This document shows positions 5,226 to 47,013 of a DNA stretch of 55,163 nt, piece by piece (position 1 is the first letter of the stretch; each line of letters opens with the position of its first letter). Source of the DNA: a bacterium. Lineage in GTDB: Bacteria > UBP7 > UBA6624. The notes under the pieces were generated by a model. That model was not told the DNA's origin and ran no database searches. It worked only from the letters and a program-made list of their open reading frames with translations. The position numbers and the translations under genes are program-made. The stretch lies in assembly GCA_014384545.1 (NCBI GenBank), contig JACNFQ010000053.1, forward strand, positions 1 through 55,163. The letters are read 5' to 3'.

Positions 5226-5228
5226 GAG

Positions 5229-7258: not shown

Positions 7259-7482
7259 ACAGAACCGCGATCGCAATCTGGATGGTGGTGGCTGGATTCT
7301 CACTCCAGTTCTTCGCCTATTTCCGTTGGGCAGCTCCTCTGGGAGCTCCGACAAGTCCGGCCTTCAGCGACCCACGCATCCCCTATGCCCCGGCTGCCTT
7401 TATTTTCGGCGTGATGCTCGTCTTCCTCTCCGCCGTTGTCTACGAACTTCAGGGTGGTGGGGAGGGAGAATCTGATGGCTGA
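7255..7482 (+). CDS. Small two-TM protein inside the Mo-enzyme operon
   Basis: 75 aa with two hydrophobic helices; RBS GGAGG; overlaps both neighbours. Confidence 0.7.
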   Translation: MNRTAIAIWMVVAGFSLQFFAYFRWAAPLGAPTSPAFSDPRIPYAPAAFIFGVMLVFLSAVVYELQGGGEGESDG

Positions 7483-10075: not shown

Positions 10076-11167
10076 ATGATTGAATTGAAAAACCACACTT
10101 TGCCCGAGGGGGCTTTTGAAGGTGTCCGTTACGAACTTAGATCCGTATTGGATCAAGCAGGAAACCGGGTCCCTCACCTCCATAACGCTTGGATCGTTCT
10201 GGACAATCCTGACCAGTACAACAGTTACACCACAGAAATGGTCAAAGAGGTCATCCTTTCATTCCGCCGGGCTTCGTCCGACAGGAGCGTTGTCGCCGTC
10301 GTCTTTACAGGGGTGGGGCACCAGGCCTTCTGTACGGGTGGAAACACCAAAGAGTATGCCGAGTATTACGCCGGAAACCCCCAAGAATACCGCCAATATA
10401 TGCGCCTTTTCAACGATATGGTTTCGGCGATTCTTGGGTGCGACAAGCCCGTCATATGTCGGGTAAATGGAATGCGTATTGGGGGTGGGCAAGAGATTGG
10501 GATGGCTTGTGATTTTTCGGTCGCCCACGATCTAGCTCGGTTTGGTCAGGCAGGTCCGAAACATGGCTCGGCTGCCATCGGGGGTGCTACCGACTTCTTG
10601 CCCCTCTTGATTGGTGTAGAGCGCGCCTTAGAAAGTGGCACCCTTTGTGAAGTTTGGTCTGCCCACAAAGCCCATCGGCTGGGGATGCTAACCGAGATCG
10701 TTCCCGCCTTGAAAGTTAATGGCGACTTTGTTCCTAACCCTCTCGTTGAGACGGCTCAATACTTGGACGCCTTCGGTCGAATCATCCATGGCGAATCGAA
10801 GACGGGCGATGCTCTTCGCGAAGGAAAGGGTGTGCTTAAACAGGGGGAAGTTTCGCTTGAATTATTGGACGAAGCCGTCGACCGCCTATCTACAAAGTTT
10901 CTTATGACCTTCCCCGACTGCCTCACAAAATCGCTTGAAGAGTTGCGTAAGCCAAAGCTTGAATCGTGGAATAGAAACAAAGAGAGTTCTCGCGCTTGGT
11001 TGGCCTTGAACATGATGACAGAAGCGCGTGCGGGTTTTATCGCTTTCAATGAGGGCACACGGGAAACAGGAAGAGAAGTGGACTTTATTCTCCTACGCCA
11101 ACGGCTAGCAGAAGGCGCACCCTGGACCGAAGAGTTGCGGCAGGAGATTTCCCCCCAAGAGGGCTAA
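10076..11167 (+). CDS. oah: 6-oxocyclohex-1-ene-1-carbonyl-CoA hydrolase (Oah/BamA)
   Basis: LDNPDQYNSYTTEMVK, FCTGGNTKEYAEYY, GMRIGGGQEIGMACD and QAGPKHGSA; WNRNKESSRAWLALNM. Confidence 0.95.
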   Translation: MIELKNHTLPEGAFEGVRYELRSVLDQAGNRVPHLHNAWIVLDNPDQYNSYTTEMVKEVILSFRRASSDRSVVAVVFTGVGHQAFCTGGNTKEYAEYYAGNPQEYRQYMRLFNDMVSAILGCDKPVICRVNGMRIGGGQEIGMACDFSVAHDLARFGQAGPKHGSAAIGGATDFLPLLIGVERALESGTLCEVWSAHKAHRLGMLTEIVPALKVNGDFVPNPLVETAQYLDAFGRIIHGESKTGDALREGKGVLKQGEVSLELLDEAVDRLSTKFLMTFPDCLTKSLEELRKPKLESWNRNKESSRAWLALNMMTEARAGFIAFNEGTRETGREVDFILLRQRLAEGAPWTEELRQEISPQEG

Positions 11168-13668: not shown

Positions 13669-15699
13669 CTAGAAACCGAAAGCAGAACCGATACGGTACG
13701 CTAAGAATGCTGCACCTATGGCTAGACTTAAGGGCAGTGCCTGAGAGAGAAGGGTAAGCCCCCAAGACTTCGTTTCTTTATGGATAACGACTGTCGTATA
13801 TCCACATGGTAGATAGAGCATATAGAAAAGAAGATAACAGAATGCAGAAAGATCGCTCCAGTGTGCCTTCAAGAAGGCACCAAGCCCCCCCGCTTCCAGA
13901 GAAAACCCAGCTGCCAAATCCGTAGCCTGCCCATATGTCATCGCCAATGAAGCAGCCATCAGTTCCTTGGCGGGAATCGTATAGATGAGCGAACTTAACA
14001 TCGCCCCATCTAACCCAAAAGGGACGCCATATGGGTCTAAAGCGCCTACAAGCCTGCCTGTATATGTTTCGGTGAAAGGCACACCAGCGGGTAGGTTTGA
14101 CATGAACCAAAAGACCAAGCAAAAGGGCGCTGCAACAGCAGCAGCACGCCAAAGTACCCCCCACACTTTAGTCTTGAGTGCCCGGCCAATCACGCGCCCC
14201 CAATCGGGCTTTCTATAGGGGGGAAGTTCGATCAAGAAAGGTACTTTTCCTTCCCCTTTTAGCACGCCATTCAAGAACCAAGTAGCAAGAAAGACCATCA
14301 GCCACGAGATAGCTACGAGAGCCGCCATCATCATCCAAGCATGGCGACCAAAGAAGAGAGCCGAGAGGAATACCATACCACCCAATCGCCCATTGCACGG
14401 GTTTATGGCGTTGGTAAGTATCGCTACTGTGCGATCCCTTCCCCGCATTATTCTGGCGGAATAGATACCCGGAATATTGCACCCATACGCCATCATGCAT
14501 GTGAGACATTGCTTCCCTTGACCTCCTACAGATTTCATCACCTTATCCATCGTGAAAGCGATACGAGGGATCAAACCGGAATCTTCTAGGACGGCAAAGA
14601 GGACAAAGAAAATAGCCATCGTCGGTAACATGACGGCTATAACCGCCCCCACCCCATAAATAAGACCCTCTACGATCGGTCCCCTTACCCAAAAGGAGGT
14701 GTCGGAAAGGAGTGTTCTTGCACCCTCTGCTAGAGAATCAAAGAGGGACATCAGGAATCCACTAATGGGTGCTGCACCTGTGACTGTAACCCAAAAAATA
14801 AAAGCGAACACTGCCAAGACGATTGGGAATGCCAATAATGGATGTAGGACGAGGCGGTCGATCTTCTCCGTCTTTAGGTCTCTGCCCGTTCCTCCTGCCA
14901 TACGTTCCCAATAGCGCGCCCGTTCAATCTTGGCCAAAACGAGGCGGTTTTGCACATCGCCCAAACTAAGGGCAAGTTGCTTCCCCTTGACAATCGCTCT
15001 TTTCCCTCCTTGCTCCTCAATCCAAGATTGAGTTCCCTTATCCCCCTCCAATAGTCGCAATGCCAGCCAACGGGTAGACCTCCTCCCCACACCTTCCTCA
15101 TCTAAGACGCGTTCTAGCTCCAGAACAGCGACTTCTACCTCGGCTTCGTAGGGGGCAATCTGCGGGTTGGCAGGTGTGGCTATACGAGATGCTATCGCGC
15201 TCTTTAGCTCATCTAGACCCTCTCCTTTGGGGGCAACGACCCCCACCACGGGGAGCGCCAGCTCACGAGCCAAAACCTCTAGATTGGGGGGTATCCCTTG
15301 ACGACGAGCTTCGTCCATCATCGTGACAGCCAATAGGACGTTAGGGGTAATCTCTCTGACTTCTAACAGAAGACGCAACCCTCGCCGAAGGCGTGTCGCT
15401 TCGGCGACAACGATAACCACACTGGGTCTCTCATCCAATAGGTACGACCAAGCGATCTCTTCCTCAACCGAGCCACCTGTTAGTGCATAAGTTCCTGGAA
15501 GATCCACAACCGACATCTCTCCTTTGGGCAGCTGCACCCTGCCTTCGGCGCGGTCCACTGTCTTTCCGGGCCAGTTTCCCACATGGTGAGAGAGCCCTGT
15601 TAGAGCATTGAAAAGGGTCGTTTTGCCCGTATTCGGTTGCCCCACCAAAGCTAAGGGGCGCACTTTTTGAGACCCTTGAACGGTTGTAAGTCCCTTCAC
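13669..15699 (-). CDS. feoB: Ferrous iron transporter FeoB
   Basis: GQPNTGKT, VGNWPGKTV and DLPGTY; LEDSGLIPRIAF, GCNIP and IELPPYR. Confidence 0.95.
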   Translation of the reverse strand: MKGLTTVQGSQKVRPLALVGQPNTGKTTLFNALTGLSHHVGNWPGKTVDRAEGRVQLPKGEMSVVDLPGTYALTGGSVEEEIAWSYLLDERPSVVIVVAEATRLRRGLRLLLEVREITPNVLLAVTMMDEARRQGIPPNLEVLARELALPVVGVVAPKGEGLDELKSAIASRIATPANPQIAPYEAEVEVAVLELERVLDEEGVGRRSTRWLALRLLEGDKGTQSWIEEQGGKRAIVKGKQLALSLGDVQNRLVLAKIERARYWERMAGGTGRDLKTEKIDRLVLHPLLAFPIVLAVFAFIFWVTVTGAAPISGFLMSLFDSLAEGARTLLSDTSFWVRGPIVEGLIYGVGAVIAVMLPTMAIFFVLFAVLEDSGLIPRIAFTMDKVMKSVGGQGKQCLTCMMAYGCNIPGIYSARIMRGRDRTVAILTNAINPCNGRLGGMVFLSALFFGRHAWMMMAALVAISWLMVFLATWFLNGVLKGEGKVPFLIELPPYRKPDWGRVIGRALKTKVWGVLWRAAAVAAPFCLVFWFMSNLPAGVPFTETYTGRLVGALDPYGVPFGLDGAMLSSLIYTIPAKELMAASLAMTYGQATDLAAGFSLEAGGLGAFLKAHWSDLSAFCYLLFYMLYLPCGYTTVVIHKETKSWGLTLLSQALPLSLAIGAAFLAYRIGSAFGF

Positions 15700-20244: not shown

Positions 20245-20287
20245 AGGGAGAATCCTAGAACTAGGATGACTCCCTTTGGAGGAGAAA

Positions 20288-21898
20288 ATGGAAAAAAGTA
20301 TTAGAGCTTATTTTGAGGATCTTGAATCGTTGGTTCGTCCCTTGCGTAAAGCGATTTCTTTGGGCTGGTGGGGCAAAGAGACAACAGGGGAAACCGTCTT
20401 TCAAGAGATTGTCCAGACTTTAGGTGAGCATTTGGAAAGTATCAATGCCGACCCCGAACGCTTTGGTCAAGTGAAGTCTTGGCACGAGAGAAGAGAGGAG
20501 ATTGGTGACCCCCTCTTGCGACGCATCGTAGAAGAATCTTACTTGGGTGCGGTTGGAAATCAAAAGACACCAGGAGAAATCAGCGAATCCCTAAAACTTT
20601 CAATCAAGATCTCCTCCACATTTGTAAGCCATCGCAGTGAAGTGGGTGGAAAGAAGATGAGCGACAACGACCTCTTGGAGATTCTGAAAGAGAGCAACGA
20701 CAATGACGAACGGCAAGAGGCATGGGAAGCATCCAAAACGATTGGTGTTGTCGTTAGGGATGATGTGATCGCCTTGGCGCACCTAAGGAATGGTTGGGCA
20801 CAACGGCTGGGGTTTAGAGATTACTACGCGATGCGCCTAGAAACCCAAGAAGTAGAAGAGTCTTTCCTATACCAGCTATTGGATGATCTAGCGGCACAAA
20901 CCAAAGTCCCTTTTCTTGCCCATAAAGCTACTGATGACGCCAAGCGCTCCCAACGGTTTGGCACGCCCATCAACGACCTCATGCCATGGCACTACGAAAA
21001 CCCCTTTTTCCAGGATGTACCTGTAGACCCTTCTTTGACCGACCCTTGGTTTAGAGAAAAGGATCTTGAAGCGCTTGCCCTAGAGACTTTCGACTCTGTC
21101 GGTTTGGATATTCGCCCCTCCCTTGAAAAGAGCGACCTTTACGAACGGGAAGGGAAAAACCAGCATGGCTTCTGTTTGTCTGTGGATGACTCCGTCCAAG
21201 ACACACGCGTCCTTTGCAACTTGCGCCCCAACACCCAATGGGCCGACACCATCCTTCATGAATATGGTCATGCCATATACAACCTATTATCTGTTGAGGA
21301 CCTTCCGTGGTTCTTACAGGGCCCCGCTCACACAAATAGCACCGAAGCGATTGCGATGATCTTTGGGAGGCAAGTGTTGAGGCCTGACTGGCTAACAGCG
21401 TTCTTAGGTGTATCTCATGAAGAGCTGGCTAGCAGTAAGAATGCACTTGCTGACGGACAGAATTACAAGATGTTGGCGTTTAGTAGGTGGATGCAAGTGA
21501 TGTGCCGATTTGAACGTGCACTCTATGCCGACCCCGATCAAGACCTGAATAAGGTCTGGTGGGATTTGAAGGAGAGATACCAAGGGCTAAACCGTCCTGA
21601 AGGGAGAGATGCTCCTGATTGGGCATCGAAAATTCATATTCCCAATTCGCCTGTCTATTACCACAACTACATGATTGGCGAGATGACCGCCAGCCAGTTG
21701 GAACATACGATCCACAAGGAATCGGGGAAGGGTCTCTTGAAGAACGAAGAGGCGGGCATTTTCTTAAGGAAGATGTTCTCATTAGGGAGCACTTTGCGAT
21801 GGGATACCCTCGTGGAAAGAATGACCGGAGCCCCCCTTTCCGCAAACGCTTGGGCAACAGACTTTGCCCACCCCCCTAAATCAAGCATGGAGAGCTAA
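20288..21898 (+). CDS. M3/M2-type zinc metallopeptidase
   Basis: LHEYGH, TEAIAM, FERALY, DWASKIH and PVYYHNY. Confidence 0.88.
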   Translation: MEKSIRAYFEDLESLVRPLRKAISLGWWGKETTGETVFQEIVQTLGEHLESINADPERFGQVKSWHERREEIGDPLLRRIVEESYLGAVGNQKTPGEISESLKLSIKISSTFVSHRSEVGGKKMSDNDLLEILKESNDNDERQEAWEASKTIGVVVRDDVIALAHLRNGWAQRLGFRDYYAMRLETQEVEESFLYQLLDDLAAQTKVPFLAHKATDDAKRSQRFGTPINDLMPWHYENPFFQDVPVDPSLTDPWFREKDLEALALETFDSVGLDIRPSLEKSDLYEREGKNQHGFCLSVDDSVQDTRVLCNLRPNTQWADTILHEYGHAIYNLLSVEDLPWFLQGPAHTNSTEAIAMIFGRQVLRPDWLTAFLGVSHEELASSKNALADGQNYKMLAFSRWMQVMCRFERALYADPDQDLNKVWWDLKERYQGLNRPEGRDAPDWASKIHIPNSPVYYHNYMIGEMTASQLEHTIHKESGKGLLKNEEAGIFLRKMFSLGSTLRWDTLVERMTGAPLSANAWATDFAHPPKSSMES

Positions 21899-21968
21899 GA
21901 CCCCCAGCCCTTAGAGATAATCGGTGCCGGTGTTGTCCTTTGGACTGGTTAAGTGATGCTACCGAGGG

Positions 21969-22943
21969 CTAAAGGTCTTTGGCGGGAATAGGGGGGGCAT
22001 CTTCAATAAGAAGTTCCGTCTTATCTTCCCAAGGTGACCAATCCCCTTTCAAAACGAAGAAAGAGACCACAGCCAAGGGGATCCACAATGCCAAACCGAA
22101 GGGTGTTGCCATACCCGACTCTGGATTAGCTAAGTAGAGACCAGTGGGCGCAAGATGAGAACCCAATGACGCACCCACCAATCCCGTTGCCCAAATGCTA
22201 CCCCACCTTAGAAAGACCCAACTCCCAATAATAGCTAGAAAGATGGTCTGAATGCCCGAACCCAAAGCAACTTCTTCTACACTATGTCCCATAAACTGGG
22301 CTTCAGGGGCAACCATCACCATAAAAGATGCTGCCACACCAGCCAGCACGCCCACAGCAATCGCCGCTTTGCGCCGACCCACTCGCACAGCCATTCTGGG
22401 CAAGAAATAGGCATACCATCCATAGGTAGACCCTATCGCCAAGAACATCCCAATGAATGGACCGACAGCCATCGTGATCCACTGTGCCCCCGCGGTTGTA
22501 CCCACTTGTTTCTCAATGAAGCCAGGAGGCAGATCTGAAAGACTGACACCTTGGGCGGCCATTGCCGCCTTCAATGCAATGGTCATTTCAGCTTTCCACG
22601 CGGTCATCTCCAAATCAATCTCGGCCCAGCCAAAGAGGGCTGTAAAGGCAAAAGCGAGCCAAGCGATACCGATTCCCCCCAAGAACAGACCCCAAAAGAC
22701 CTTACCGGGCATCCACTTGAACCCAGCACCACCAAAGCCCTCTTTTCCTACAAGCCTTGCTATTACAGCCGCTATTGCGGGGAGAAAACTCAATCCCACC
22801 ACCAAGAAACCTGCCATGGGATTTGCAGAATCACCAGAAGCGACACCTTGGGATTTCATTTGGAAGACCAACCACAGGGGGAGAATGAAGGCGACCGCCA
22901 AATAGACAACCAAACCAAGAGGGAGACTGTTTTTCTTATTCAT
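21969..22943 (-). CDS. CPBP/Abi-like membrane protein lacking catalytic residues
   Basis: Multi-TM. GSTYGWYAYFLPRM sits where CPBP proteins have GEExGWRGYLLP; WVFLRWGSIW also matches the family. Start may be 22952. Confidence 0.6.
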   Translation of the reverse strand: MNKKNSLPLGLVVYLAVAFILPLWLVFQMKSQGVASGDSANPMAGFLVVGLSFLPAIAAVIARLVGKEGFGGAGFKWMPGKVFWGLFLGGIGIAWLAFAFTALFGWAEIDLEMTAWKAEMTIALKAAMAAQGVSLSDLPPGFIEKQVGTTAGAQWITMAVGPFIGMFLAIGSTYGWYAYFLPRMAVRVGRRKAAIAVGVLAGVAASFMVMVAPEAQFMGHSVEEVALGSGIQTIFLAIIGSWVFLRWGSIWATGLVGASLGSHLAPTGLYLANPESGMATPFGLALWIPLAVVSFFVLKGDWSPWEDKTELLIEDAPPIPAKDL

Positions 22944-22990
22944 ACTTCCCATTTTACGCTCCTTTTTCCAATCGGCATGAGTTTCGTCAG

Positions 22991-23983
22991 TTACATAGAG
23001 CGCAATCTCTCAATACGCTTCTCCATAGGGGGGTGGGTCTCAAAGAGACCAAGAAAACCCTCTTGATATTCCCGTAGAGGATTCCATATCCAAAGATGGG
23101 CATTCCCCATCTTCGCAACCTCTAGGGGCTCGGTGTCGGTGGAAATCTTCTCCAAGGCACTCCATAGACCTTCGGGGTTTCGAGTAATCGCTACTGCTGT
23201 CGCATCCGCCAAGAACTCCCTCTTGCGTGATACGGCGAACCGCACCAGTTGCGCCGCTAAGGGGGCAATGATCGCAACGAGAAGCATCAAGACGAGAATC
23301 GCGGCACCCCCCTCGCCCCTTCTGCGTCGGCTTCCACCATACCGCATTGAACGCCACATCACCTCCGAAAGTGAGAGTATCGTCCCTACCAGTGCAGAAA
23401 CCAAGACCATCAACGCACTATCTCCATTCTCGATATGGGCAAGCTCATGTGCCAAAACACCCTCTAATTCATATCGGTCCAGCTGTTCTAGGAGTCCAGT
23501 CGTAACGACTATCGCCGCTTTCTCACCCTTTGAAACAGCAAATGCATTCGGTGCCCCATCATCCACCACACGAATCTCTATATCCTCCCCTCGCCCTACA
23601 GCCAACATCAGTGCCGAAACCAACGGTCTAACGCGCCTGTTCTCTTCGGGACGGGGATGTCGTGCTCGTGCTGCGGCTAGCACAGCTGGCATGCCCCATA
23701 ACGAAGAGCCCCCCCAACTCAAAAGCCCCCATCCCACACCCACCAAAAGACCGACTACCAAGTCCTCTAGAAAGAAGAACCCGAATGCGGCACCTATGCC
23801 CCCCAAAAGGACAAGAAGAAAGAGGACCAAGCCCACCGTCTTACGACGGTTTGACTTCTGTTCATCAGAAAAAAGCCGGCGCATCCGGGGGACAGAAGGA
23901 CCAGGAATCTCCTCCTTAATTCGTGCTCCAAGTGGCAGAGCATTTGGGGGGTCCCAATCTGGAGTGGGGTCTTTGTATACCAA
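22991..23983 (-). CDS. htpX: HtpX-family M48 zinc protease
   Basis: PNAFA, VTTGLL, GVLAHELAH, SRKREFLADA and FETHPP. Confidence 0.92.
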   Translation of the reverse strand: MVYKDPTPDWDPPNALPLGARIKEEIPGPSVPRMRRLFSDEQKSNRRKTVGLVLFLLVLLGGIGAAFGFFFLEDLVVGLLVGVGWGLLSWGGSSLWGMPAVLAAARARHPRPEENRRVRPLVSALMLAVGRGEDIEIRVVDDGAPNAFAVSKGEKAAIVVTTGLLEQLDRYELEGVLAHELAHIENGDSALMVLVSALVGTILSLSEVMWRSMRYGGSRRRRGEGGAAILVLMLLVAIIAPLAAQLVRFAVSRKREFLADATAVAITRNPEGLWSALEKISTDTEPLEVAKMGNAHLWIWNPLREYQEGFLGLFETHPPMEKRIERLRSM

Positions 23984-23995
23984 GAATACCCTTCG

Positions 23996-24538
23996 TTAGA
24001 AAGAGACCGAAGGGGCGTCGTGGGCGGCACAATCATCGGGAATATCAAAGAGATCCGCTGCACCAAACCCCGATGCAGCGAATGACCAAGGGAACATCAA
24101 GCGGAGGGCGTTGTACTTGGTCACGACGTCGTTGTGGTGTTGCCTCGCATAGGCGATTCGGTTTTCGGTATTGGACAACTCTTCAGTAAGTTGTCGGAAG
24201 TTCGCATCTGCTTTCAACTCTGGATACGCCTCGGACAGGGCAAAGATACGTCCCAATGCAGCGCCTAACATGCCCTCGGCTAAGCCTTGCTCTTGAGGGT
24301 TTCCCGCAGCAACGGCTTGGTTGCGTGCCTGAATCACTGCCTCTAAGGTCTCCCTTTCATGGTTCTTATACCCCTTGACCGTTTCCACCAAGTTGGGAAT
24401 CAGGTCGTAGCGACGCTTCAGTTGGACTTCAACCTGAGACCAAGCATTCGCTATAGACGCCGAGAGTTTTACGAAACCGTTTCTAGCTGAAATGAACCAA
24501 ATCCCACCAGCCACCAAGACACCCAAAACATAGAACAT
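23996..24538 (-). CDS. lemA: LemA-family protein
   Basis: NAWSQVEVQLKRRYDLIPNLVETVKGY, EAYPELKA and TENRIAYAR. Confidence 0.96.
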   Translation of the reverse strand: MFYVLGVLVAGGIWFISARNGFVKLSASIANAWSQVEVQLKRRYDLIPNLVETVKGYKNHERETLEAVIQARNQAVAAGNPQEQGLAEGMLGAALGRIFALSEAYPELKADANFRQLTEELSNTENRIAYARQHHNDVVTKYNALRLMFPWSFAASGFGAADLFDIPDDCAAHDAPSVSF

Positions 24539-24579
24539 ATAGATTCCTCCTATCCCTTATTTTACGCAAGAGAGAGAGA

Positions 24580-25800
24580 CTAGGTGATTCGATAGACCCA
24601 TTCCTCGATGTGATCACACGGTTGACAATGGTATTCAGCGACGCGAATAGGTCGACCCAAAGGGCCCGTTAGGTCGTGTAGTGTTCGCAATCCCATGACC
24701 CTTGTGCAATGGCAAGGGGGTCGCTTCTGGCTTGCACGCTCTTCTACTTCCGGGGCAGGACATGATGGTGCTGATGTGAAATAGCCATCGTAGGGAATCA
24801 GAAGGCGGTTAAATGAGTGGACAAAGCGTTGAGCCCACAATGAAGCATCGTAGCGATCTTCAACCCGAATAGAACGGGGGATGTCTCGTGGCAGGTCGCC
24901 ACCACCACCCAGCCACTCCTTTCGTGCATCTGCCATCGCCACCAAGACTTTGGGATGCTCCCATGCGTATTTTCTGAGAGCGCTTCGGGCAATGAAATTG
25001 TATTGGTGTCCTACCTGCCCATACTGTGCAAGATACGAGAATAGCGGTCGTGCCAACAAAGAGGCTCCCCACGCCTCACGCGTGGACTTGATCTCTAACC
25101 CCAACGGATTTCCTTCGTGGCGGACATCACTAGCCAACCACCCGATTTCGTGGCGTCCCACACCAGCCTCAACCAAGACATCAGGTGCCCCCTTGTATCC
25201 TGTTATCTCCTTCGAAATATCCCCTGCACGCCACCAACGACGGGGGCTAGGCTGCCAAGCCCTCTCTATCTCTACCCCCGTAAACCGAGCCAAATGCAAT
25301 GCTCCCAAGATAGAGATTGAACGGGGACGCTCTGAAAACTCAGTATCAATGAAATCCTCAAGAATCTGTTCGGTAGATAGAACCCCCTTGTAATCATCAA
25401 TCGGTGTTTGATACTCCACATAGGCGACCTTGGCTAAAACATCATCTGTAACGACCGCAAATCCAAAGTGTTGGGCAACGGCAAAAACAGTCGCTTCCCC
25501 TAAATCAAGGGCCTTTGTACGCAAGAGCCGAAAGAGCGATGTCGCTTCGGGATCGACTTTCCTGAAGTTAATGATCTCCAAGCCCGCCCCCACCAGCGCG
25601 TCTTTCTGCTTCCTGCTCCTAATCTCATTCCCAACGCTCTTCGTTGTAACCGTACGCAATCCCGCTTTCTGAAGAGCTGTCAAAACAGAAAGATGCCCCC
25701 CCTTTTCTAGCTTGATCAACACATCGGCATCAAAGACTAAGGTGCTATTTCCCCGCTTGTGAACCCGATCAAAAACCGAAGCAACACCCTGTTCAATCAT
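24580..25800 (-). CDS. PIN-domain protein with a putative PD-(D/E)xK nuclease domain and a C-terminal Zn ribbon
   Basis: LVFDADVL...SVGNEI...LDLGEA...VVTDD (PIN); APDVLVE...LEIKS; CHC...CQPC. Confidence 0.7.
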   Translation of the reverse strand: MIEQGVASVFDRVHKRGNSTLVFDADVLIKLEKGGHLSVLTALQKAGLRTVTTKSVGNEIRSRKQKDALVGAGLEIINFRKVDPEATSLFRLLRTKALDLGEATVFAVAQHFGFAVVTDDVLAKVAYVEYQTPIDDYKGVLSTEQILEDFIDTEFSERPRSISILGALHLARFTGVEIERAWQPSPRRWWRAGDISKEITGYKGAPDVLVEAGVGRHEIGWLASDVRHEGNPLGLEIKSTREAWGASLLARPLFSYLAQYGQVGHQYNFIARSALRKYAWEHPKVLVAMADARKEWLGGGGDLPRDIPRSIRVEDRYDASLWAQRFVHSFNRLLIPYDGYFTSAPSCPAPEVEERASQKRPPCHCTRVMGLRTLHDLTGPLGRPIRVAEYHCQPCDHIEEWVYRIT

Positions 25801-25803
25801 CGG

Positions 25804-26601
25804 CTAGAGACTCGTTACATCCCGCCGAATACGGTTTATTGATACCGCCTTGCTGGTCTCACTATCTACTGTAATCAACGCTCCTTGAAATGTGGCAGAA
25901 CCCACTCTGGGTGTGGAAAACCGAGTGCCAATACCTTTCCGAAAACGCTCGACACTGATCTCGGGGACAACCCCAATGACAGAATCAAGCGCCCCGGTCA
26001 TTCCTATATCCGAAATACCGGCTAGCCCCTTCGGAAAAATGCGTTCATCTGCTGTCGCAACATGGGTATGTGTCCCCCAACACGCTGTGGCATTTCCATC
26101 AAGGAACCACTGCATCGCCTGTTTTTCGCTCGTTGCCTCTGCGTGGAACTCCACCAAGAGAATCTCCCCCTCTCTCTTTTCCTCCAGGATTCCCTCTATG
26201 CACGCAAAAGGATTGTCCGTTCCTTCTCTCATAAATACCCTACCCTGAAGAACGACCAATCGGATAGGGCGCCCCTTGACAACTTCCGTCCAAACTCCTT
26301 GTCCGGGGGCTCCCATTGGATAGTTTGCTGGACGAACCAAAGGTTCTGTTGCATTGCTCATCACACGGCGAATAGATCCTTGGTCTAGCCAATGATCCCC
26401 TAGTGTCACGATATCTGCACCCGAATCTTTCAAATCAAAGTAGTTGGGCTCACTCAACCCAAATCCACCACTCGCGTTCTCGCCATTGACAATCACCAAA
26501 TCTGCTTTATGCTCTTCGCGTACCCGAAAAAGCTCCCGCTGGATCATTCGGCGACCCAACCTCCCCATCACATCTCCCACAACTAAGATGCGGATGGTCA
26601 C
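25804..26601 (-). CDS. ymdB: YmdB-like metallophosphoesterase
   Basis: GDVMG, NGENASGG, TLGDH, RPANYP, FHAEATSEK, GTHTHV and DIGMTG. Confidence 0.93.
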   Translation of the reverse strand: MTIRILVVGDVMGRLGRRMIQRELFRVREEHKADLVIVNGENASGGFGLSEPNYFDLKDSGADIVTLGDHWLDQGSIRRVMSNATEPLVRPANYPMGAPGQGVWTEVVKGRPIRLVVLQGRVFMREGTDNPFACIEGILEEKREGEILLVEFHAEATSEKQAMQWFLDGNATACWGTHTHVATADERIFPKGLAGISDIGMTGALDSVIGVVPEISVERFRKGIGTRFSTPRVGSATFQGALITVDSETSKAVSINRIRRDVTSL

Positions 26602-28118
26602 AAGGTAACCCGACCCCGCCGCTCCCGAATCACTGTAATCGTCAAAGAACCAGGTATCTCTAGTTCCTCTCGAATCCGCCGACCAATCCTCTCTGCCAAT
26701 ACGGTGGGATCACGATCCCCCGACCTGTCGGGGTCAAGAACGACCCTCACTTCTCGCCCAGCACTGACAGCATAAACGGATGCCACACCCTCTTCTTCCA
26801 TCCCCAGAGCCTCTATCGCTTCCAACCTCTCCATATGTTCTTCCGTATTCTCGCGCCTTGCTCCTGGACGGGCCGACGAAAGAGCATCTACTAACCCCAC
26901 CAAGGCTGCTTCAGCATTCTCGGGAGCAACCTCACCGTGGTGGCATGCCACCCCATTCGCCACAGGGGCAGACTCTCCCCTTTCCAGAAGGAATCTTGCT
27001 CCTGCTTCCGCATGGGGAATCCCAGCACCAGCATCAGGTAGTGCTTTCCCGATATCGTGAAGAAACGCCATCCTAGAGAGAAGGGCACTATCTAACCCGA
27101 TCGTACGGGCTAAGAGATTAGCGATGCGGGCACACTCGACACTGTGGAGCAAGAGGTTTTGCCCCATACTGGACCGAAAACCCATATGCCCCATCATCCT
27201 CTCCACTTCGCGATGGAGCCCCTCCACCCCAGCTTCTTGAGCAGCTCTAGCTCCCCTTTCTCGAGCTTCCTCCTCTATCCCTTCCTCGGCCCGCTCAATC
27301 TCGGCTTCGATAGCGGGAGGATGAATACGACCATCAGCAATCAACTGCTCCAACGCTCTTTTTGCGATCGCTCTTCGTAAACCGTCGTGGGAAGCGATGA
27401 CGATCTGGAGTGATTCATCAATGATGAGGTCCACGCCCGCTCGCTCTTGAAACGACTTTACATTCCTACCGCCCTTCCCAATGATGCGCCCCTTCCACGA
27501 CTCTTCAGGTATCTTGATAAGGTCTGTAAAGTCCTCAGCCAACAGAGCAGGGATTTCCACACGTTGAATCGCTTCAAGTAAGAGGTCTCGGGCTCTTGCC
27601 TCTGCCGTTCTCTCTGCCATAGCTTCCCCTTCTTTAGCCAACCGCCTTAGAGCCTCGCGGCTCGCTCTGCGGGCATGGTCAACTACGAAGTCGCGTGCCT
27701 CATCTGCTGATAGCCCTGCCAACGCTTCAACCCGACCAGCCAACTCCTCTTCTTCCTTCAAGTGCCTCTTCTCTTGGTTCTCTAGCCTCTTTTTCCACGC
27801 CTCCATCTCTGCCCTCTCTTTCTCGGCAGTTGCCCTCGCTATGCGTCGTTCCTTCTCTCGTCGGGTTTCCTCATTTCTGTTCTGTTCTAGAAGTTGTTTG
27901 GCAACACCCCTTTCTTCAGCGGCAGCTAAGCGAGCCTGTTCAGCACCCTCTCTCTCTGCTCTGGCTTCTTTCTTGATGGCGGTGATTTGAGACTTCGCTT
28001 CAAGGATTTCTGCAGCACGCTCATCTACCCGCTCTTTCTTGCTTTTTGCTAGGATAAGTGCACCCACCACACCAGCCCCAAGTGCACCCACAAGAATGCC
28101 TGTCCAAAATAATGTCAC
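26598..28118 (-). CDS. rny: Ribonuclease Y
   Basis: N-terminal TM, coiled coil, KH domain KGRIIGKGGRN, HD domain LHDIGKA, LSSARPGARRE; GTG start follows GGAGA. Confidence 0.93.
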   Translation of the reverse strand: MTLFWTGILVGALGAGVVGALILAKSKKERVDERAAEILEAKSQITAIKKEARAEREGAEQARLAAAEERGVAKQLLEQNRNEETRREKERRIARATAEKERAEMEAWKKRLENQEKRHLKEEEELAGRVEALAGLSADEARDFVVDHARRASREALRRLAKEGEAMAERTAEARARDLLLEAIQRVEIPALLAEDFTDLIKIPEESWKGRIIGKGGRNVKSFQERAGVDLIIDESLQIVIASHDGLRRAIAKRALEQLIADGRIHPPAIEAEIERAEEGIEEEARERGARAAQEAGVEGLHREVERMMGHMGFRSSMGQNLLLHSVECARIANLLARTIGLDSALLSRMAFLHDIGKALPDAGAGIPHAEAGARFLLERGESAPVANGVACHHGEVAPENAEAALVGLVDALSSARPGARRENTEEHMERLEAIEALGMEEEGVASVYAVSAGREVRVVLDPDRSGDRDPTVLAERIGRRIREELEIPGSLTITVIRERRGRVTL

Positions 28119-28183
28119 ATTCGTTCTCCCTGTCAGTCGCCAAGGCGACCGTTTAGTGGGGTACCCCAAAGGGGATACTAACT

Positions 28184-29212
28184 CTAGTTTTCTATAAGCC
28201 CCAAATCGATCTTTACCATCGTTTCTATCTTCTCTCTGATATCGTCGTTTTCGTCAAGAAATCTCACGACATTCACCATCCCTTGCCCCAATGCAGTATC
28301 CCCAAAATGGAACCAACTACCCGATTTGTCCACAGCGCCACAATCCACCCCTAGCTGGACCAACTCTGCTCCTTTCCAGATACCAATACCAAACCGAATG
28401 GGAAACTCAGCCTTTTTGAAGGGAGGTGCTACTTTGTTCTTGACGATGCGGCATCGGACAATGCTACCTACATTTTCCTCCTTCTCTAGGATTGATTTGA
28501 TACGTCGAATATCGATCCGAACCGAAGAGTAAAACTTAAGGGCTCTCCCTCCTGGCGTCGTTTCGGGGTTTCCAAACATTACACCGATCTTCATTCGTAT
28601 CTGGTTGATGAAGATGACTGCGGCGCCCGTTCTTGAAATGCTCCCCGAGAGCCTACGGAGAGATTGGGACATCAGACGTGCCTGTAAACCTACTTTAGGG
28701 TCTCCAATATCCCCTTGAAGTTCTGCCTTGGGAACCATCGCAGCAACACTATCAATAACGACCAAGCCGACTGCACCCGAACGAATCATCTCATCGGTAA
28801 TATCCAAAGCTTGTTCCATATGTTCCGGCTGGGTCAATAAGAGATTGTCCCAATCCACCCCTACTCTTTCGGCATAACTCTGCATCAATGCATTCTCTGC
28901 ATCCACATAGAGGACTGTCTTCCCTTTCTTTTGAGCCTCGGCAACGATGTGGAGAGCCAAAGTCGTCTTTCCGCTCGCCTCAGGACCAAATACCTCGGTA
29001 ATACGACCGCAAGGAATTCCCCCCACGCCCAAGCGGGTGTCCAATAGCAGTGAACCTGTGGAAATTGACTCACCTTTTTGGGTAGCACCTGTCGTCCCCA
29101 TCCGCATGACAGCACCTTCGCCATATTTGCGCTCGATAGAACGAAGAACGGTATCCAAGACATTCTTCTCTTTCCCCTTTGTGCTCTTTTTAGTCGTTTT
29201 TTTCTTCGCCAT
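28184..29212 (-). CDS. recA: Recombinase RecA
   Basis: GPEASGKTT, VIDSVAAMVPKAE, IFINQIRMKIGVMFGNPETTPGGRALKFY. Confidence 0.98.
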   Translation of the reverse strand: MAKKKTTKKSTKGKEKNVLDTVLRSIERKYGEGAVMRMGTTGATQKGESISTGSLLLDTRLGVGGIPCGRITEVFGPEASGKTTLALHIVAEAQKKGKTVLYVDAENALMQSYAERVGVDWDNLLLTQPEHMEQALDITDEMIRSGAVGLVVIDSVAAMVPKAELQGDIGDPKVGLQARLMSQSLRRLSGSISRTGAAVIFINQIRMKIGVMFGNPETTPGGRALKFYSSVRIDIRRIKSILEKEENVGSIVRCRIVKNKVAPPFKKAEFPIRFGIGIWKGAELVQLGVDCGAVDKSGSWFHFGDTALGQGMVNVVRFLDENDDIREKIETMVKIDLGLIEN

Positions 29213-29282
29213 TCTTACTTTGACTCCTTTCGTTTTCCTCTCTCCGTTAGAGGGTGGACATCGTGGCTCGGAGAGCCACAAC

Positions 29283-29412
29283 CCCTCATCCCCTTTCTCC
29301 ACGCCTTGCCACCTGCGTCGGGGGGTAGGAACCCCCGACCTAACGGAACCCTCATCCCCTATCTCCACGCCTTGCCACCTGCGTCGGGGGGTAGGAACCC
29401 CCGACCTAACGG
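29283..29412. repeat. Tandem 64-bp direct repeat, each copy with a GC-rich hairpin (REP-like)
   Basis: 29283-29346 and 29349-29412 differ at one position. Each contains GTCGGGGG-GTAGGAA-CCCCCGAC. Confidence 0.92.
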
Positions 29413-29912
29413 GTCGGGAGGACCACGGTAGAGAGGCTTTCTATTGACTTCTCCACAGATGCTCGGCGAACCGATTCTCTATCTCCGTCAAGAATCCATT
29501 TTACAGCGTTCGTCTTACCCGCCACGTAGAGTGCCATCCAAACAGTCCCCGCGGGCAATCCATCCTGGGGACCAGGGCCAGCTACTCCGGTCAAGGCGAG
29601 GGCAATCTCTGTCCCTAATGCTGTTGACACACCCTTAGCCATCCCTGTTGCCACCGCTTCACTTACCACTCCTTGCTCTTTGATCACTTTTGGATGGACG
29701 CCCAACAGAGAAGATTTGACCCCCACCTGATAGGAAACGATACCTCCGCGGAACCACGCCGAAGCGCCTGGAGTTGAACTGAGGCGTGCAGAGAGTTCGC
29801 CCCCCGTCAAAGACTCGGCGACCGAAAGGGACCATCCCCGCACAACGAGAGCTTCTGCCAAGAGGAACAACCCTCCTTCGCCATCGCACTTACCCTGTCT
29901 TGGGTAGATCAT
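29406..29912 (-). CDS. cinA: CinA C-terminal domain / PncC NMN deamidase
   Basis: SVAESLTGG, PGASAWFRGGIVSY, VVSEAVA and TGVAGP. The true start is probably slightly downstream of the ORF start. Confidence 0.9.
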   Translation of the reverse strand: MIYPRQGKCDGEGGLFLLAEALVVRGWSLSVAESLTGGELSARLSSTPGASAWFRGGIVSYQVGVKSSLLGVHPKVIKEQGVVSEAVATGMAKGVSTALGTEIALALTGVAGPGPQDGLPAGTVWMALYVAGKTNAVKWILDGDRESVRRASVEKSIESLSTVVLPTR

Positions 29913-30705
29913 TCACATCCATCACAGGAAGGTCACCACCCGTTTTTGAAATGATCCGCTCTTTCTTGCCTCTAGAGGGCGATGTACTCTCGCTAGTAGA
30001 TGGTCGACTCTCTTCTCGGCGACCATCCATAAGGCGAATCTCTCCTTCTGGCCATGCCACTTGAACGACTGCAGCCTCGGATTTTCCCGTATTACCACCC
30101 GCTGGGGTGTTCATTGTGCCCATCACAAAGAGCTTGGTGCCCTCGTTGATGAACTTCTCTGCAAACTCAGCATCTTTGCCCCAACAAACAACGGTATGTG
30201 CGTGAATCTCCTCCCACTTGTCTCCCGAGCGGGTCGTCGTAATGCGGTTTGTCATTACGGTGAAATTTGCTTCTTTCCCACCTTGGACAGAACTCCCCAT
30301 TTGGGGTTTCGTTTGGGCTTCTCCTACCAAAATCAACTTGTTTACCATTTCGGCAAATCCTCCCTCTTGCCGATCGTCCATGACGAGGACTTTCCCCTTT
30401 GGCCAACCCGCCTTGATTTCGGTAATGTACTTTTGGTTCCCTTCCGCATCCTCGTATTGGCGATACTCAATGCTCCCTTCTACATAAAGCTTTCTGCCCT
30501 TTTTTACGTTCTCTTCCACAAACTCAGCATCCTTCCCCCAACAGATAATGCGGTGCCATTGGGTAACATCCCTCTCTTCGCCTGAGCGGGTCTTATACCG
30601 TTCGTTGGTCGCCAAACGGATCGTTGCTTTCTTGGTCCCGCTCGGGAATTCCCGAATTTCAGGTTCTGCTCCTACATTGCCGACCAGTATCAACTTGTTG
30701 ATCAT
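29890..30705 (-). CDS. ssb: Single-stranded DNA-binding protein with two tandem OB folds
   Basis: MINKLILVGNVG...TQWHRIICWGKDAEF...KGRKLYVEG, repeated as MVNKLILVG...HTVVCWGKDAEF...GTKLFVMG; RBS AGGAGG. Confidence 0.92.
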   Translation of the reverse strand: MINKLILVGNVGAEPEIREFPSGTKKATIRLATNERYKTRSGEERDVTQWHRIICWGKDAEFVEENVKKGRKLYVEGSIEYRQYEDAEGNQKYITEIKAGWPKGKVLVMDDRQEGGFAEMVNKLILVGEAQTKPQMGSSVQGGKEANFTVMTNRITTTRSGDKWEEIHAHTVVCWGKDAEFAEKFINEGTKLFVMGTMNTPAGGNTGKSEAAVVQVAWPEGEIRLMDGRREESRPSTSESTSPSRGKKERIISKTGGDLPVMDVNDLPKTG

Positions 30706-30783
30706 CTCTTTCCTCCTAATCCCATCTTTATTCTTGGATCTCCTAACTATTCTACTAGAGCAAGTTCCTCGTGCCCCTTTTTC

Positions 30784-30798
30784 GTTCCCGTTATGTTC
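30784..30798. promoter_or_regulatory. Candidate direct-repeat LexA box (GTTC-N7-GTTC) upstream of ssb
   Basis: GTTC-ccgttat-GTTC in the dcd-ssb intergenic region; minus-strand TAGAAT at 30749-30754. Confidence 0.4.
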
Positions 30799-30802
30799 AC
30801 CC

Positions 30803-31369
30803 CTACATTCGGGGAAGAGTAATGCCAACTTGCGACTGGTACTTGCCCGCCCGATCCGCATAAGAGGTTTCGCATGGGTCGTCACTCTCAAAAAAGAGAA
30901 CTTGGGCAATCCCCTCGTGGGCGTAGATCTTGGCGGGTAGCGGTGTCGTGTTGCTAATCTCTAGTGTCACATGCCCCTCCCATTCGGGCTCAAAGGGTGT
31001 TACGTTCACGATGATTCCGCACCTTGCATAGGTTGACTTTCCTAAACAGACCGTAATCACATTTCTGGGTATCTTGAAATACTCCACAGTCCGTGCCAAT
31101 GCGAAGGAGTTGGGAGGAATCAGCACTTCGTCCGCGACGACATCCACAAAACACGAACGATCCATCCCCTTGGGGTCAACCACGGAGCTGTGGAGATTCG
31201 TAAATACTCTAAACTCGTTGGTGACACGGATGTCATACCCATAAGAAGATGTTCCATACGAAATGACACGATCACCCAAACTATTCTCTTTGACTTGATC
31301 GGAGCAAAAAGGCGTAATCATTCCTTTCGCCGCCATTTGACGAATCCATGAATCCGGTCTTACAGACAT
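30803..31369 (-). CDS. dcd: dCTP deaminase
   Basis: [20 protein letters not shown] and [23 protein letters not shown]; TGATG overlap with nrdJ. Confidence 0.97.
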
Positions 31370-34300
31370 CAGGAACAACCCATAGAGTTGCCACAGTTCA
31401 AACAACGGTAACAGGTGCCGTTCCGCACTGTGATGTGGCCACATTGGTCACAGAGGGGGGCGTCGCCCATCATCTGTCCCAAGTGGATATCTAGAGCGTC
31501 ATCGCTCCCTTTCTCCTTGCTAAAGAGTGGCTCCTGCTTGGGCAAGGTGGCATCTCTCGTTCGTTCTACTGGAGGATCGGCAGGGGGGATTTGGACAAAA
31601 TCTGTTCGACCCAAATACTCCATTCCTAATAACTTAAAGATGAAATCAACGACACTTGTCGCTTTCTTGATGTTCGGGTGGTCCACCATCCCATAGGGCT
31701 CAAACCGAGTAAAGGTAAAAGCGTCCACAAACTCCTTCAACGGCACCCCATACTGAAGCCCCAAACTGACTGCAATGGCAAAGCAGTTGAGCAAACTGCG
31801 GAATCCTGCCCCCTCTTTGTGCATATCCAAAAAGATCTCTCCCAATCGGGGCTTGCCCTCCTCGCCTACTTCATATTCGCCTGTGCGGACGAAAATCTTA
31901 TGCCCCCCAATACGCGCTTCAGATGTAAACCCCTGCCTCCGCCTCGGAAGGCGCTGGCGTCTTGAGCGTTGAACTGTGTCCGTTTTGGGTGCCTCATCGT
32001 GTGCCTCTTCAGTGGTCTTCTCCTGATCAATCTCTTTTCCTGATTGGAGAGGTTGAGCTCCTTTTGAACCATCACGGTAAACAGCGACTGCCTTCAGACC
32101 CAGTTTCCACCCTTGAATATAGATATCTTCAATATCCTGAACCGAGGCCGAGGCTGGAAGATTGACGGTTTTAGAGATAGCTCCCGAAAGGAAGGGCTGG
32201 GTCGCAGCCATCATCCGCACATGCCCCATCGCAGGGATATACCGTTCACCATGCCCACACTTGTTGGCACAATCGAAGACAGCAAGGTGCTCTTCCTTGA
32301 GTCCTGGAGCACCTTCAACCGTCATCCGCCCAAAAATGATCTCATTCGCCTTCTCAACCTGTTCCTCATCAAACCCTAGCGCTTCCATCATACTAAAGCC
32401 CTCTTCGTTCGCTGGTCCTTCCCATCCTCGTGCTTCTAAGAAATCCTCCCCTACATGCGACACCGTAAGGACCTCCTTGATAGAGAATGCTCCCAAAAAC
32501 TTACTCTCAAGACGAGCCAAGTCCTTAGGCGAAAATCCCTTCTTCTTGAGCGAGTCTGTATTGATGGGTGAGGGGTTGTCCCAAGACATAAACCCCTGGA
32601 CATACTGGAGAATCTCCTTTACATCTGATTCGGCATATCCCAAGAAAGTGAGTCCACGGCGGACCGTTCGGTTGATAATCTTAAAATAACCCCCACCCGC
32701 TAGTTTCTTGATCTTGCACAAAGCGTAATCGGGCTCAATGCCCGTTGTGTCACAATCCATCAACAGTCCGATCGTCCCTGTAGGTGCCAAAACCGTAGCT
32801 TGAGCGTTTCGAAAACCACTCTCGGCCCCCTCTTTGACGACGCCATCCCATAGACGCGTTGCTTCGTTCCAAAGAGCGGCTCCTGTGTGCTCTATCTCTA
32901 GCGAGTACGCAGCTTGTCGGTGGAGATTCATGACCTCACCCATCGATGTGGCATTCTCTGGATAGGCTGCAAACGACCCTTTCGATTCTGCAAGTTCTGC
33001 GGATACACTATACGCACATCCTGTCAAAATACCAGTCAGAGCGGCTGCTATTCCCCTCCCCTCTTCACTGTCGTAGGGGATACCCCGCGCCATCAGCAAA
33101 CCCCCAAGATTAGCGTACCCCAACCCCAATGGGCGGAAATCATGTGAGTTTTTCGCTATCTCCTCTGTGGGATAGGAAGAGAGGTCAACGAGAATCTCTT
33201 GGGCTGTAAATAAGAGGCGAATCGCATGGTTATATCCTCCAATATCAAAAGAGCCATCTTCCTTTTGGTATTTCAAGAGATTGATGCTAGAGAGATTACA
33301 TGCCGTGTTGTCCAAGAACATAAACTCGCTACAGGGATTAGATGCGTTGATACGGTCTGTCGCTTTACAGGTGTGCCACTCGTTGATCGTTGAGTCGTAC
33401 TGAACCCCAGGATCAGCACATTGCCATGTCGCCTCTGCCAACGCACCCATCACCTTGCGACAAGATAACTCTTCCATACCCTCTCCCGTTGTCCGGAAGG
33501 TCGTCCAATAAGTCTTGTCCTCTTCGTAGCCCTTTAGGAAATCATCTGTAAGCCTAACGGCATTGTTGGCGTTTTGCCCGCCGACCGTCTCGTAGGCTTC
33601 TCCCCCTATCCCTCCCTCGTATCCACTCGCCATCAAGACTTTCGCCTTTTTCTCTTCCACAACCTTCCAGTTGATGAACTCAAGGATTTCAGGGTGGTCT
33701 ACATCTAAACAGACCATCTTTGCAGCACGCCGTGTGGTCCCTCCCGACTTTGTAGCCCCAGCACCTGAATCTAGGACCTTTAGGAAAGACATCAATCCAC
33801 TGGAGCTTCCACCCCCTGACAACTTCTCTGTCTTTCCGCGCAAAGGACTAAAGTTTGTCCCTGTACCCGAGCCATACTTAAAGAGCCGAGCCTCGTTCTG
33901 AGCAAGAGAAAAAATGCTCATCAAATCATCGTCCACTTTTTGGATGAAACAAGCACTACACTGAGGACGTTCGTAGTTGTCTTCTAGGCGATGTGGTCGT
34001 TCTCTCTCTTCATCCCAAGCCCAATTTCCACCTGCACCTTTGATACCATACTTGGCAGAGAGTCCACAGTTGAACCAAACGGGGCTGTTGAAAGCAGCAT
34101 GCTGATTGGCCAAGAGCCAAGAAAGCTCTTCCTCGAATGTCTCAGCGTCTTCCTCGCTGGCAAAATACCCACCCGCCTTCGTGCCCCACATGCGCATTGT
34201 GTGGATAATGCGCTGAATGGTCTGACGAAGAGAAGTCTCGCCTACTCCCTCCCCCCCCACGCCCCGTTTCCTGAAATATTTGCTGGCGAGGATGTCAATA

Positions 34301-34521
34301 GAGAGTTGACTCCAATTTGTGGGTACCTCTATCCCATCCATCTCAAAAACGACAGATTCGTCTTGATTCGTGATCTTACTGATGGCATTCTTCCACTTTA
34401 TACTCTCATCCCAACTCTGATCGGTTTGGGTATGGTGGCGATCAAAGAAAAGCCCCTTACCCGATCCCTTCAAACACTCTCTTTCTCTTCCTTCCTTCGC
34501 TCTTTTTTCTGTGTCAGACAT
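31369..34521 (-). CDS. nrdJ: Class II B12-dependent ribonucleotide reductase
   Basis: [28 protein letters not shown] and GAISKTVN; C-terminal TSCPD-like domain and CDQC...CLNC. Confidence 0.96.
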
Positions 34522-46949: not shown

Positions 46950-46963
46950 CAACGATAACTACC

Positions 46964-46994
46964 GGGGGCCGGCTCGTCCGGCCCCCTATTTTTT
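46964..46994 (+). terminator. Intrinsic terminator or stabilising hairpin after nosZ
   Basis: GGGGGCCGG-CTCGT-CCGGCCCCC followed by TATTTTTT. Confidence 0.85.
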
Positions 46995-47013
46995 AAAGGA
47001 AAATAACGGATAT

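Follow-up and report, generated by a model that had tools for sequence, protein, structure and literature searches.

The closest described relatives of the protein analysed here are the VapC-like toxins of the COG2405/DUF3368 group (PF11848), which have the PIN fold and the acidic active-site pattern in common with it. The nearest search neighbours, among the representatives and in the Atlas, are likewise DUF3368-type PIN proteins of about 165 aa. The accessible part of a classification of PIN proteins (PMC5499597) presents COG2405 toxins as single-domain proteins, usually paired with UPF0175 or HTH, and lists UPF0175, HTH and DUF955 as partners; our protein, in contrast, carries two further domains and lacks a partner gene. 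In type II VapBC modules and the COG2405-UPF0175 pair an adjacent antitoxin is expected, whereas none is found at this locus or in the cassettes of its relatives. A stand-alone PIN gene is also the hallmark of the PADLOC class PDC-S70, which is described as PIN-encoding in the available text of PMC12988326. In the portion of a preprint that was accessible (bioRxiv 10.1101/2024.09.26.614923), a PDC-S70 representative cut the plating of T4, T5, and T7 100-1000-fold. However, the PDC-S70 profiles span 125-162 positions, cover the PIN domain alone, and give no full-length match to our protein.

Two further systems resemble it in domain composition. The rRNA endonuclease Nob1 combines a PIN domain with a C4 zinc ribbon, and its structure (2lcq) aligns with the PIN portion of our protein at Z 9.3, but our protein has a 160-aa winged helix between these domains and is encoded by a sporadic gene, not a conserved ribosome-biogenesis gene. 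Eukaryotic Xrn1 carries a PIN-superfamily nuclease and a D3-type winged helix in one chain, as our protein is predicted to do. According to the accessible part of PMC10590902, the domains of Xrn1 are ordered PAZ-KOW-winged helix-SH3, and the winged helix extends toward the catalytic centre, possibly regulating it. The catalytic domain of Xrn1 is the large FEN-group XRN_N, with seven acidic residues, a tower, and a 5'-phosphate pocket, and is accompanied by PAZ, KOW, and SH3-like domains, whereas the nuclease here is a VapC-type PIN domain of about 150 aa and XRN_N has no Pfam match in the protein. Because a small VapC-type PIN takes the place of XRN_N, we do not expect the protein to act as an exonuclease. 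CapRel SJ46 offers an analogy only: in the available part of its description (bioRxiv 10.1101/2022.05.30.493996), a single protein holds an N-terminal toxin and a C-terminal proposed restraint and phage sensor. CapRel pairs a toxSYNTH toxin with a pseudo-zinc finger and shows no homology to our protein, for which autoinhibition is itself a proposal. The protein resembles both the one-gene PIN defence candidates and the fused toxin-antitoxin systems and is a member of neither.

The gene lies in a window of 55,163 nucleotides, the whole stretch of DNA that was analysed. The features needed below are as follows.

24580..25800, minus strand: whole gene with an ATG start, encoding P0001 of 406 aa (PIN, predicted Xrn1-D3-like winged helix, and C4 zinc ribbon).
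25276..25749, minus strand: PIN domain, VapC-like, approximately residues 18-175; predicted active site D24, E59, E102, and D119/D120.
24781..25251, minus strand: middle domain, approximately residues 184-340, a basic winged helix, the predicted homologue of the Xrn1 D3 region.
24592..24762, minus strand: C4 zinc ribbon (C363, C365, C392, C395) with the conserved C347; CxC...CxxC, a clade-specific add-on.
25804..26601, minus strand: ymdB (PF13277, E 2.3e-86), the upstream neighbour; context, outside the system.
23996..24538, minus strand: lemA (PF04011, E 8.6e-52), the downstream neighbour; context.

All motifs quoted in the sequence-only reading are present in the 406-aa translation: F23-D24-A-D26, N58-E59, D99-L-G-E102, and T118-D119-D120 in the N-terminal part, P206-D207-V-L-V, L235-E236-I-K238-S, and Y256-L-A-Q-Y in the middle, and C363-x-C365...C392-x-x-C395 at the end. 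No known family covers the protein over its full length in scans of Pfam, NCBIfam, PHROGs, and PADLOC, as that reading had anticipated; NCBIfam and PHROGs returned only noise. A fusion with an Xrn1 domain was not found in the accessible part of PMC5499597, and the words 'winged' and 'integron' have no match in the portion of its Matelska supplement that was available. The literature searched, whose coverage leaves out most subscription papers, yielded no report of a fusion of PIN with Xrn1 D3 and none of an Xrn1 winged helix in bacteria.

The PIN domain is well supported by structure and conservation. The full-length model of P0001, built on 7 sequences, reached a pLDDT of 68.9 with low confidence in the linker between the PIN domain and the winged helix. 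Aligned with VIA-align, the PIN part of this model matches VapC toxins at Z 10-11.5 with an rmsd of 2.4-3.5 for most, and the top Foldseek rows for the PIN-bearing model are all PIN proteins (E about 0.01). Residues D24, D26, E102, and D120 are conserved in all 10 members, while E59 is present in 7/10 (a gap in 3) and D119 in 7/10 (N in 3). The PIN domain with intact acidic residues claimed earlier is therefore borne out by the VapC fold match and these four residues. The closest PIN classes are COG2405/DUF3368, where PF11848 is a precomputed tag and the Atlas leads for P0001 are DUF3368 with scores below 0.9, and PDC-S70. Residues 21-131 match three PDC-S70 profiles at E 2.9e-5 to 7.3e-4, a weak and partial match (profile positions 3-109 of 161) seen in 1 of the 8 full-length members scanned; the short PIN proteins P0006 and P0013 match PDC-S70 at E 1e-12 to 1e-18. 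The sole Pfam match to the domain, PIN_6 of the Nob1 type, scores below its cut-off (E 0.0037, 18.1 bits against 27). The domain is predicted to cut RNA.

The middle region had been read as a PD-(D/E)xK nuclease, and conservation does not sustain this. Position 207 is D in 2/10 members, and position 236 is E in 2/10, with K in 7 and Q in 1. The two closest homologues have each lost one of the pair, and K238 is the only invariant residue of the supposed motif. The whole middle domain has no invariant acidic residue, the best being E198 (9/10). The restriction-like nuclease was rejected on the conservation of D207 and E236. In the models PDVLV lies on a short helix; the middle domain is mostly helical with short strands, and its best match is a winged helix of the Xrn1 D3/MerR-like type, a fold other than that of restriction endonucleases. 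PD-(D/E)xK chains are absent from the fold lists for this domain, although absence alone does not exclude that fold. The sequence-only reading had named a middle domain of another fold as grounds for its refutation, and the predicted models point that way. Judged from the alignment, PDVLV...LEIKS is a chance likeness to a restriction-enzyme motif.

Folded alone with 10 sequences, the middle domain gave a model of pLDDT 79.8 and pTM 0.81. It aligns with residues 864-1008 of Drosophila Xrn1 (2y35_A) at Z 11.7, with an rmsd of 3.1 over 115 aligned residues and 15% identity. This is the sole chain with Z ≥8 among 48,161, the next being at Z 5.0, and the rows below it are mostly helix-turn-helix domains of the MerR family (Z ≤5.0). 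In the full-length model the Xrn1 match has Z 8.9. Foldseek also ranks 2y35 first (probability 0.84), yet with an E of 0.18. We infer from the domain order, the Pfam name, and the MerR-type neighbours that residues 864-1008 are the winged helix (D3) of Xrn1, whose exact boundary we take to lie around these positions. Since a Z below about 13 may reflect an arrangement common in helical domains, a separate sequence test was run with Pfam XRN1_D2_D3 (PF18334).

Two Arcobacter members of the family, P0020 and P0021, scored 24.0 and 22.0 bits as whole proteins, against a curated cut-off of 21.8. PF18334 is the best Pfam match of their C-terminal halves (E 2.9e-5 and 1.2e-4), and a six-frame search also placed it over the cut-off in both Arcobacter genomes. 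As controls, 0/400 diverse genomes, 0/400 other Campylobacterota, and none of the host genome (G000) and 14 control genomes had a match over the cut-off. A sub-cut-off match in one genome (G002) was discarded as noise, as it spans 3 stop codons. The matching members are 2 of 10, with a margin of 0.2-2.2 bits, and PF18334 was not matched by P0001 or the 7 other members; the two matching proteins are 88% identical and come close to one observation. The matched region maps onto residues 219-295 of P0001. The middle domains of the two clades of the family, that of P0001 and a distant one, are homologous (hhalign 94.9%, E 4.5e-8), with 17.9 bits in the comparison against a maximum of 3.3 in 900 shuffles. 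The link from P0001 to PF18334, as drawn by these profile comparisons, is transitive through P0020 and P0021. Searched in reverse, the bacterial family profile and the L011 middle domain recovered no Xrn1 among PDB sequences, and an Atlas search with residues 150-344 of P0019 gave no usable match. On the strength of models resting on 7-10 sequences and of this profile match, the middle domain is predicted to be homologous to Xrn1 D3.

Conservation in the middle domain is basic and aromatic. W189, G220, G234, L235, K238, S239, Y267, K277, Y278, and F326 are invariant in the 10 members, R/K251 and K/R325 are also conserved in character, and the pI is 9.3-10.7 in 10/10. Complex predictions between the PIN and middle domains gave 0.02, 0.53, and 0.01 in separate runs against a mark of 0.32, which weighs neither for nor against an interaction. 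The C-terminal zinc ribbon noticed at first sight holds up: CxC...CxxC is found in P0001-P0004 and the model shows a three-stranded sheet with pLDDT 85-93. Pfam, PHROGs, and PDB sequences gave no match to it. The motif is lacking in 7/7 intact distant members, restricting the ribbon to the clade of P0001.

A word-indexed search found only two homologues, P0002 and P0003, which are full length and 53% and 49% identical to P0001. A profile search of 1.84 billion representatives returned 11 matches, comprising P0001, P0003, four proteins of 329-341 aa, three with the PIN domain alone, and two long ones that proved spurious. P0005, P0007, and P0008 match over the PIN domain and the middle region in this search, and P0009 does so on alignment. 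P0011 and P0012, which are long, unrelated, and repeat-rich, were discarded, and the PIN-only proteins P0006, P0010, and P0013 were excluded from the family alignment. Searching with a profile built from the four 329-341-aa proteins brought in P0019 and, out of 38 candidate stretches, three genome loci, all in Campylobacterota: L010 and L011 in Arcobacter and L012 in Sulfurimonas. An hhalign comparison of the two clades covers 296 columns at 99.2%, and they split cleanly in the tree. Those distant relatives for which context is available are only about 22% identical to P0001 and lack the zinc ribbon.

The family is tiny and patchily scattered. Tallies gave 2/184 genomes in the family of L010, 1/301 in that of L012, and 1/401 in the class, all of them loci already found, and the gene did not turn up in the 7 remaining genomes from the host phylum (71-93% complete). 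Viral contigs held no member (0/52 and 0/4), plasmid and phage searches gave no family match, and a BFVD fold search returned nothing at E ≤0.001. Genomic context covers L010-L012 only, with none for P0002-P0004, P0005, P0007, P0008, P0009, and P0019; that of the P0001 clade was not recovered from metagenomes (0/106 and 0/549 candidate stretches) or genomes (0/89).

All three relatives' genome loci are flanked by sites of the attC family, with one ORF per cassette and no antitoxin inside the cassettes. In L010, attC-like sites at positions 9881-9949 and 10958-11026 enclose the gene, and the array lies downstream of an integron-type integrase that is divided between two ORFs. In L012 the enclosing sites span 3222-3290 and 4479-4548, and the array counts at least 14 attC-like sites, 9 of which were used for the attC profile. 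The neighbours of the L012 gene in the array include ParE, an addiction-module gene, AlbA_2, and matches to PDC-S32/S50. The L010 and L012 flanks fold better than shuffled sequences (z -3.7 to -6.0), whereas those of L011 fold no better (z -1.1 and +1.2) yet align with the attC family and appear eroded. The L011 gene is found in a defence island, among HsdR, JukAB, a Cas9 fragment, resolvases, a kinase, and a PDC-S49-like NTPase. The three loci are not independent, as all are from Campylobacterota and two are 88% identical.

Several details of these loci were recorded in passing. An IS-like element of 190 bp breaks the Sulfurimonas copy at L012:4138-4327; it has terminal inverted repeats of 23 bp, contains an N, and would be a MITE or a collapsed insertion sequence. 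Six nucleotides past a Shine-Dalgarno-like stretch, L010:9962-9964 and L011:9986-9988 read ATC where L012:3304-3306 reads ATG, and the Arcobacter cassettes have no in-frame ATG between the attC site and the PIN motif. A weak ATC start could be a limit on the dose of a toxic nuclease or a sign of decay. The Arcobacter island (L011:638-18765) also encodes YfbU, the N-terminal fragment of Cas9, and a Ser/Thr kinase, and more attC-like sites occur in L011 near 15035-15100.

At the host locus the gene starts 3 bp past ymdB, a gap that our measurement confirms, and is followed after 41 bp by lemA and then htpX. Upstream of ymdB are rny and recA on the same strand, and recA, cinA, and ssb belong to the same gene run. 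Neither an antitoxin nor a methylase gene adjoins it, as claimed earlier, the neighbours being ymdB and lemA. The locus is not an assembly artefact, since a single contig of run X1 covers 21000-29325 and no joint skips the gene; four sequencing runs compared (3 studies) list 0 differences inside it. The host, whose genome measures 1.39 Mb (79% complete, 52% GC), is present in marine metagenomes from 4 studies. Codon usage of the gene is ordinary for the host (CAI at the 63rd and GC3 at the 41st percentile of 466 ORFs), and a recent foreign origin was set aside as unsupported on this ground. The 20 other window proteins and near neighbours that were scanned are metabolic, housekeeping, or unassigned, and the host locus is no defence island. 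A promoter/terminator scan around the gene gave chance-level results. The attC-like fold is absent at its flanks (z +1.8 and -0.4), the attC profile trained on Campylobacterota has a best match of E 3.1 in the host genome, and no integron integrase was found there with the one query sequence tried.

The slot after ymdB is variable. A different gene follows in the 6 relatives with sequence there, and the contig of a seventh ends at this point: four sister-genus genomes have an opposite-strand ORF, one has another ORF, and a class-level relative has a third. From its sequence we read the opposite-strand ORF as an acetyl-CoA synthetase. Three of five sister-genus genomes have lemA, in each case on a contig other than that of ymdB. 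The functional coupling to recA and RNase Y proposed at first is not supported, given the varying slot, the 0/7 other phylum genomes with the gene, and the integron cassettes of its relatives, and the link to recA-rny is probably positional. The lack of attC sites and defence neighbours, the native codons, and the invariance fit a long-settled insert, that is, a domesticated gene.

Two small features border the slot. Seven differences from DNA runs X1, X7, and X8 are clustered at window positions 25834-25907 (74 bp, the 3' end of ymdB); two of them also occur in run X10, which is probably DNA, and five change an amino acid. The cluster may be a recombination patch edging the variable slot. The 7-mer AGTCTCT (minus strand) occurs at 25806-25812, at the end of ymdB, and at 24574-24580, at the stop codon of the gene, and is possibly an insertion relic or a product of chance.

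We interpret the protein as a self-restrained single-gene anti-phage RNase acting by abortive infection, a reading whose chances we judge to be evenly balanced. The more specific proposal, a miniature-Xrn1-like new family of bacterial anti-phage RNases in which a PIN-fold nuclease is gated by a true Xrn1 D3 homologue, is offered tentatively. For a PIN RNase to move about without a partner gene, either something must restrain it in cis or it must do no harm before it is triggered. Self-gating is suggested because the winged helix is the only non-PIN part common to all members and because the Xrn1 winged helix has been proposed to regulate the catalytic centre. The winged helix would bind nucleic acid through its invariant lysine and aromatic residues and would gate or aim the PIN active site, as proposed for Xrn1. 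The enzyme would stay quiet with no separate antitoxin until phage nucleic acid or protein engages it, and the triggered PIN domain would cut host or phage RNA and stop the infection. The zinc ribbon may be an optional sensor or tuning module, and the host gene would borrow the recA-rny-ymdB transcript.

The PIN fold and residues, the Xrn1 match by both structure and profile, the patchy distribution, and the cassette context support the defence reading, and the defence role suggested in the sequence-only reading is plausible given the PDC-S70-like PIN domain and the cassette and defence-island context of the relatives. Most integron cassettes are not defence genes. Among unknown integron cassettes that were tested, at least a third were anti-phage, according to the accessible part of bioRxiv 10.1101/2024.07.02.601719. 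This reading is weakened by a context drawn only from kindred Campylobacterota relatives that are about 22% identical and lack the ribbon, by a host locus that has neither attC sites nor defence neighbours but native codons and an unvarying sequence, by the narrow PF18334 matches in 2 of 10 members, and by the PDC-S70 match in a single member.

The self-restrained anti-phage RNase would add a candidate one-gene defence family. Mobile bacterial genes that join a predicted Xrn1-type domain to another kind of PIN-superfamily nuclease also bear on the origin of the accessory domains of Xrn1. If the miniature-Xrn1 reading is true, the D3 domain would occur both in conflict systems of prokaryotes and in the mRNA decay of eukaryotes, and proteins of 330-400 aa would provide a model for testing the regulatory role of the Xrn1 winged helix.

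The protein could instead be a fused toxin-antitoxin, addiction, or stress module with no anti-phage role, which we consider unlikely but the best of the alternatives. The winged helix would then replace the UPF0175 or HTH antitoxin, binding DNA at its own promoter or blocking the PIN toxin in cis, and the module would stabilise the array in integrons. This would agree with the accessible part of PMC5499597, in which COG2405 PIN genes usually have a UPF0175 or HTH gene beside them and fusions of HTH with PIN are also reported, with the MerR-family DNA-binding domains that are the next structural matches, with the toxin-antitoxin cassettes in the L012 array, and with UPF0175 not being found in the host genome (79% complete). 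However, a single polypeptide allows no differential decay unless it is processed, the 3-bp gap in the host leaves no room for a promoter/operator of its own, and the best match is a domain of an RNA enzyme, Xrn1, with more than twice the Z of the MerR matches.

Also unlikely, and a little more so, is a domesticated RNase for RNA turnover or ribosome-associated work alongside RNase Y and YmdB, in which the Xrn1-type winged helix would anchor the PIN domain to ribosomes or structured RNA in a Nob1-like processing or quality-control role. Its same-strand position 3 bp from ymdB and behind rny, native codon usage, invariance across 3 studies, homology to a domain of an mRNA-decay enzyme, and the weak, sub-cut-off PIN_6 match would suit such a role. 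A gene that is not found in 7/7 other phylum genomes, sits in a slot that varies, and has mobile cassettes as relatives, one copy of which is broken by the IS-like element, argues against it.

We regard as improbable a structure-specific DNA nuclease working in step with recA in repair or anti-plasmid defence, whose winged helix would bind DNA while its PIN domain would cleave flaps or single-stranded DNA. The MerR-like DNA-binding fold matches, the basic character of the domain, and a gene run that includes recA, cinA, and ssb are in its favour, but the PIN domain is of the VapC type, whose characterised members usually cut RNA in the available part of PMC5499597, a FEN-type arch is not evident in the model, and no link to recA exists at the 3 other loci. 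The dual RNase and PD-(D/E)xK DNase of the sequence-only reading has the letters PD...EIK in its favour and is barely credible in view of the unconserved D207 and E236, the missing invariant acidic residue, and the mostly helical, Xrn1/MerR-matching model.

Elsewhere in the window, ssb (29890-30909) encodes two tandem SSB domains, whereas the SSB of the sister genus has one such domain and is 145-156 aa long. An ORF of 1050 aa at 31369-34521 resembles ribonucleotide reductase and reads as class II from its sequence; its positional counterpart in the sister genus, a 1070-aa gene, is only 24-26% identical to it and is preceded by an extra ORF of 361-375 aa. An in-place swap of reductase class is the likely explanation, judged from these sequences. 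A nitrous-oxide reductase cluster with a nos propeller, NosD, and an ABC membrane protein occupies 44961-50588 in this small-genome marine bacterium, and a molybdopterin oxidoreductase/NrfD operon lies at 2604-8233. Finally, an M2/M3/M32-like metallopeptidase gene (20276-21898) is on the strand opposite to its neighbours and is inverted relative to its neighbours in the sister genus.
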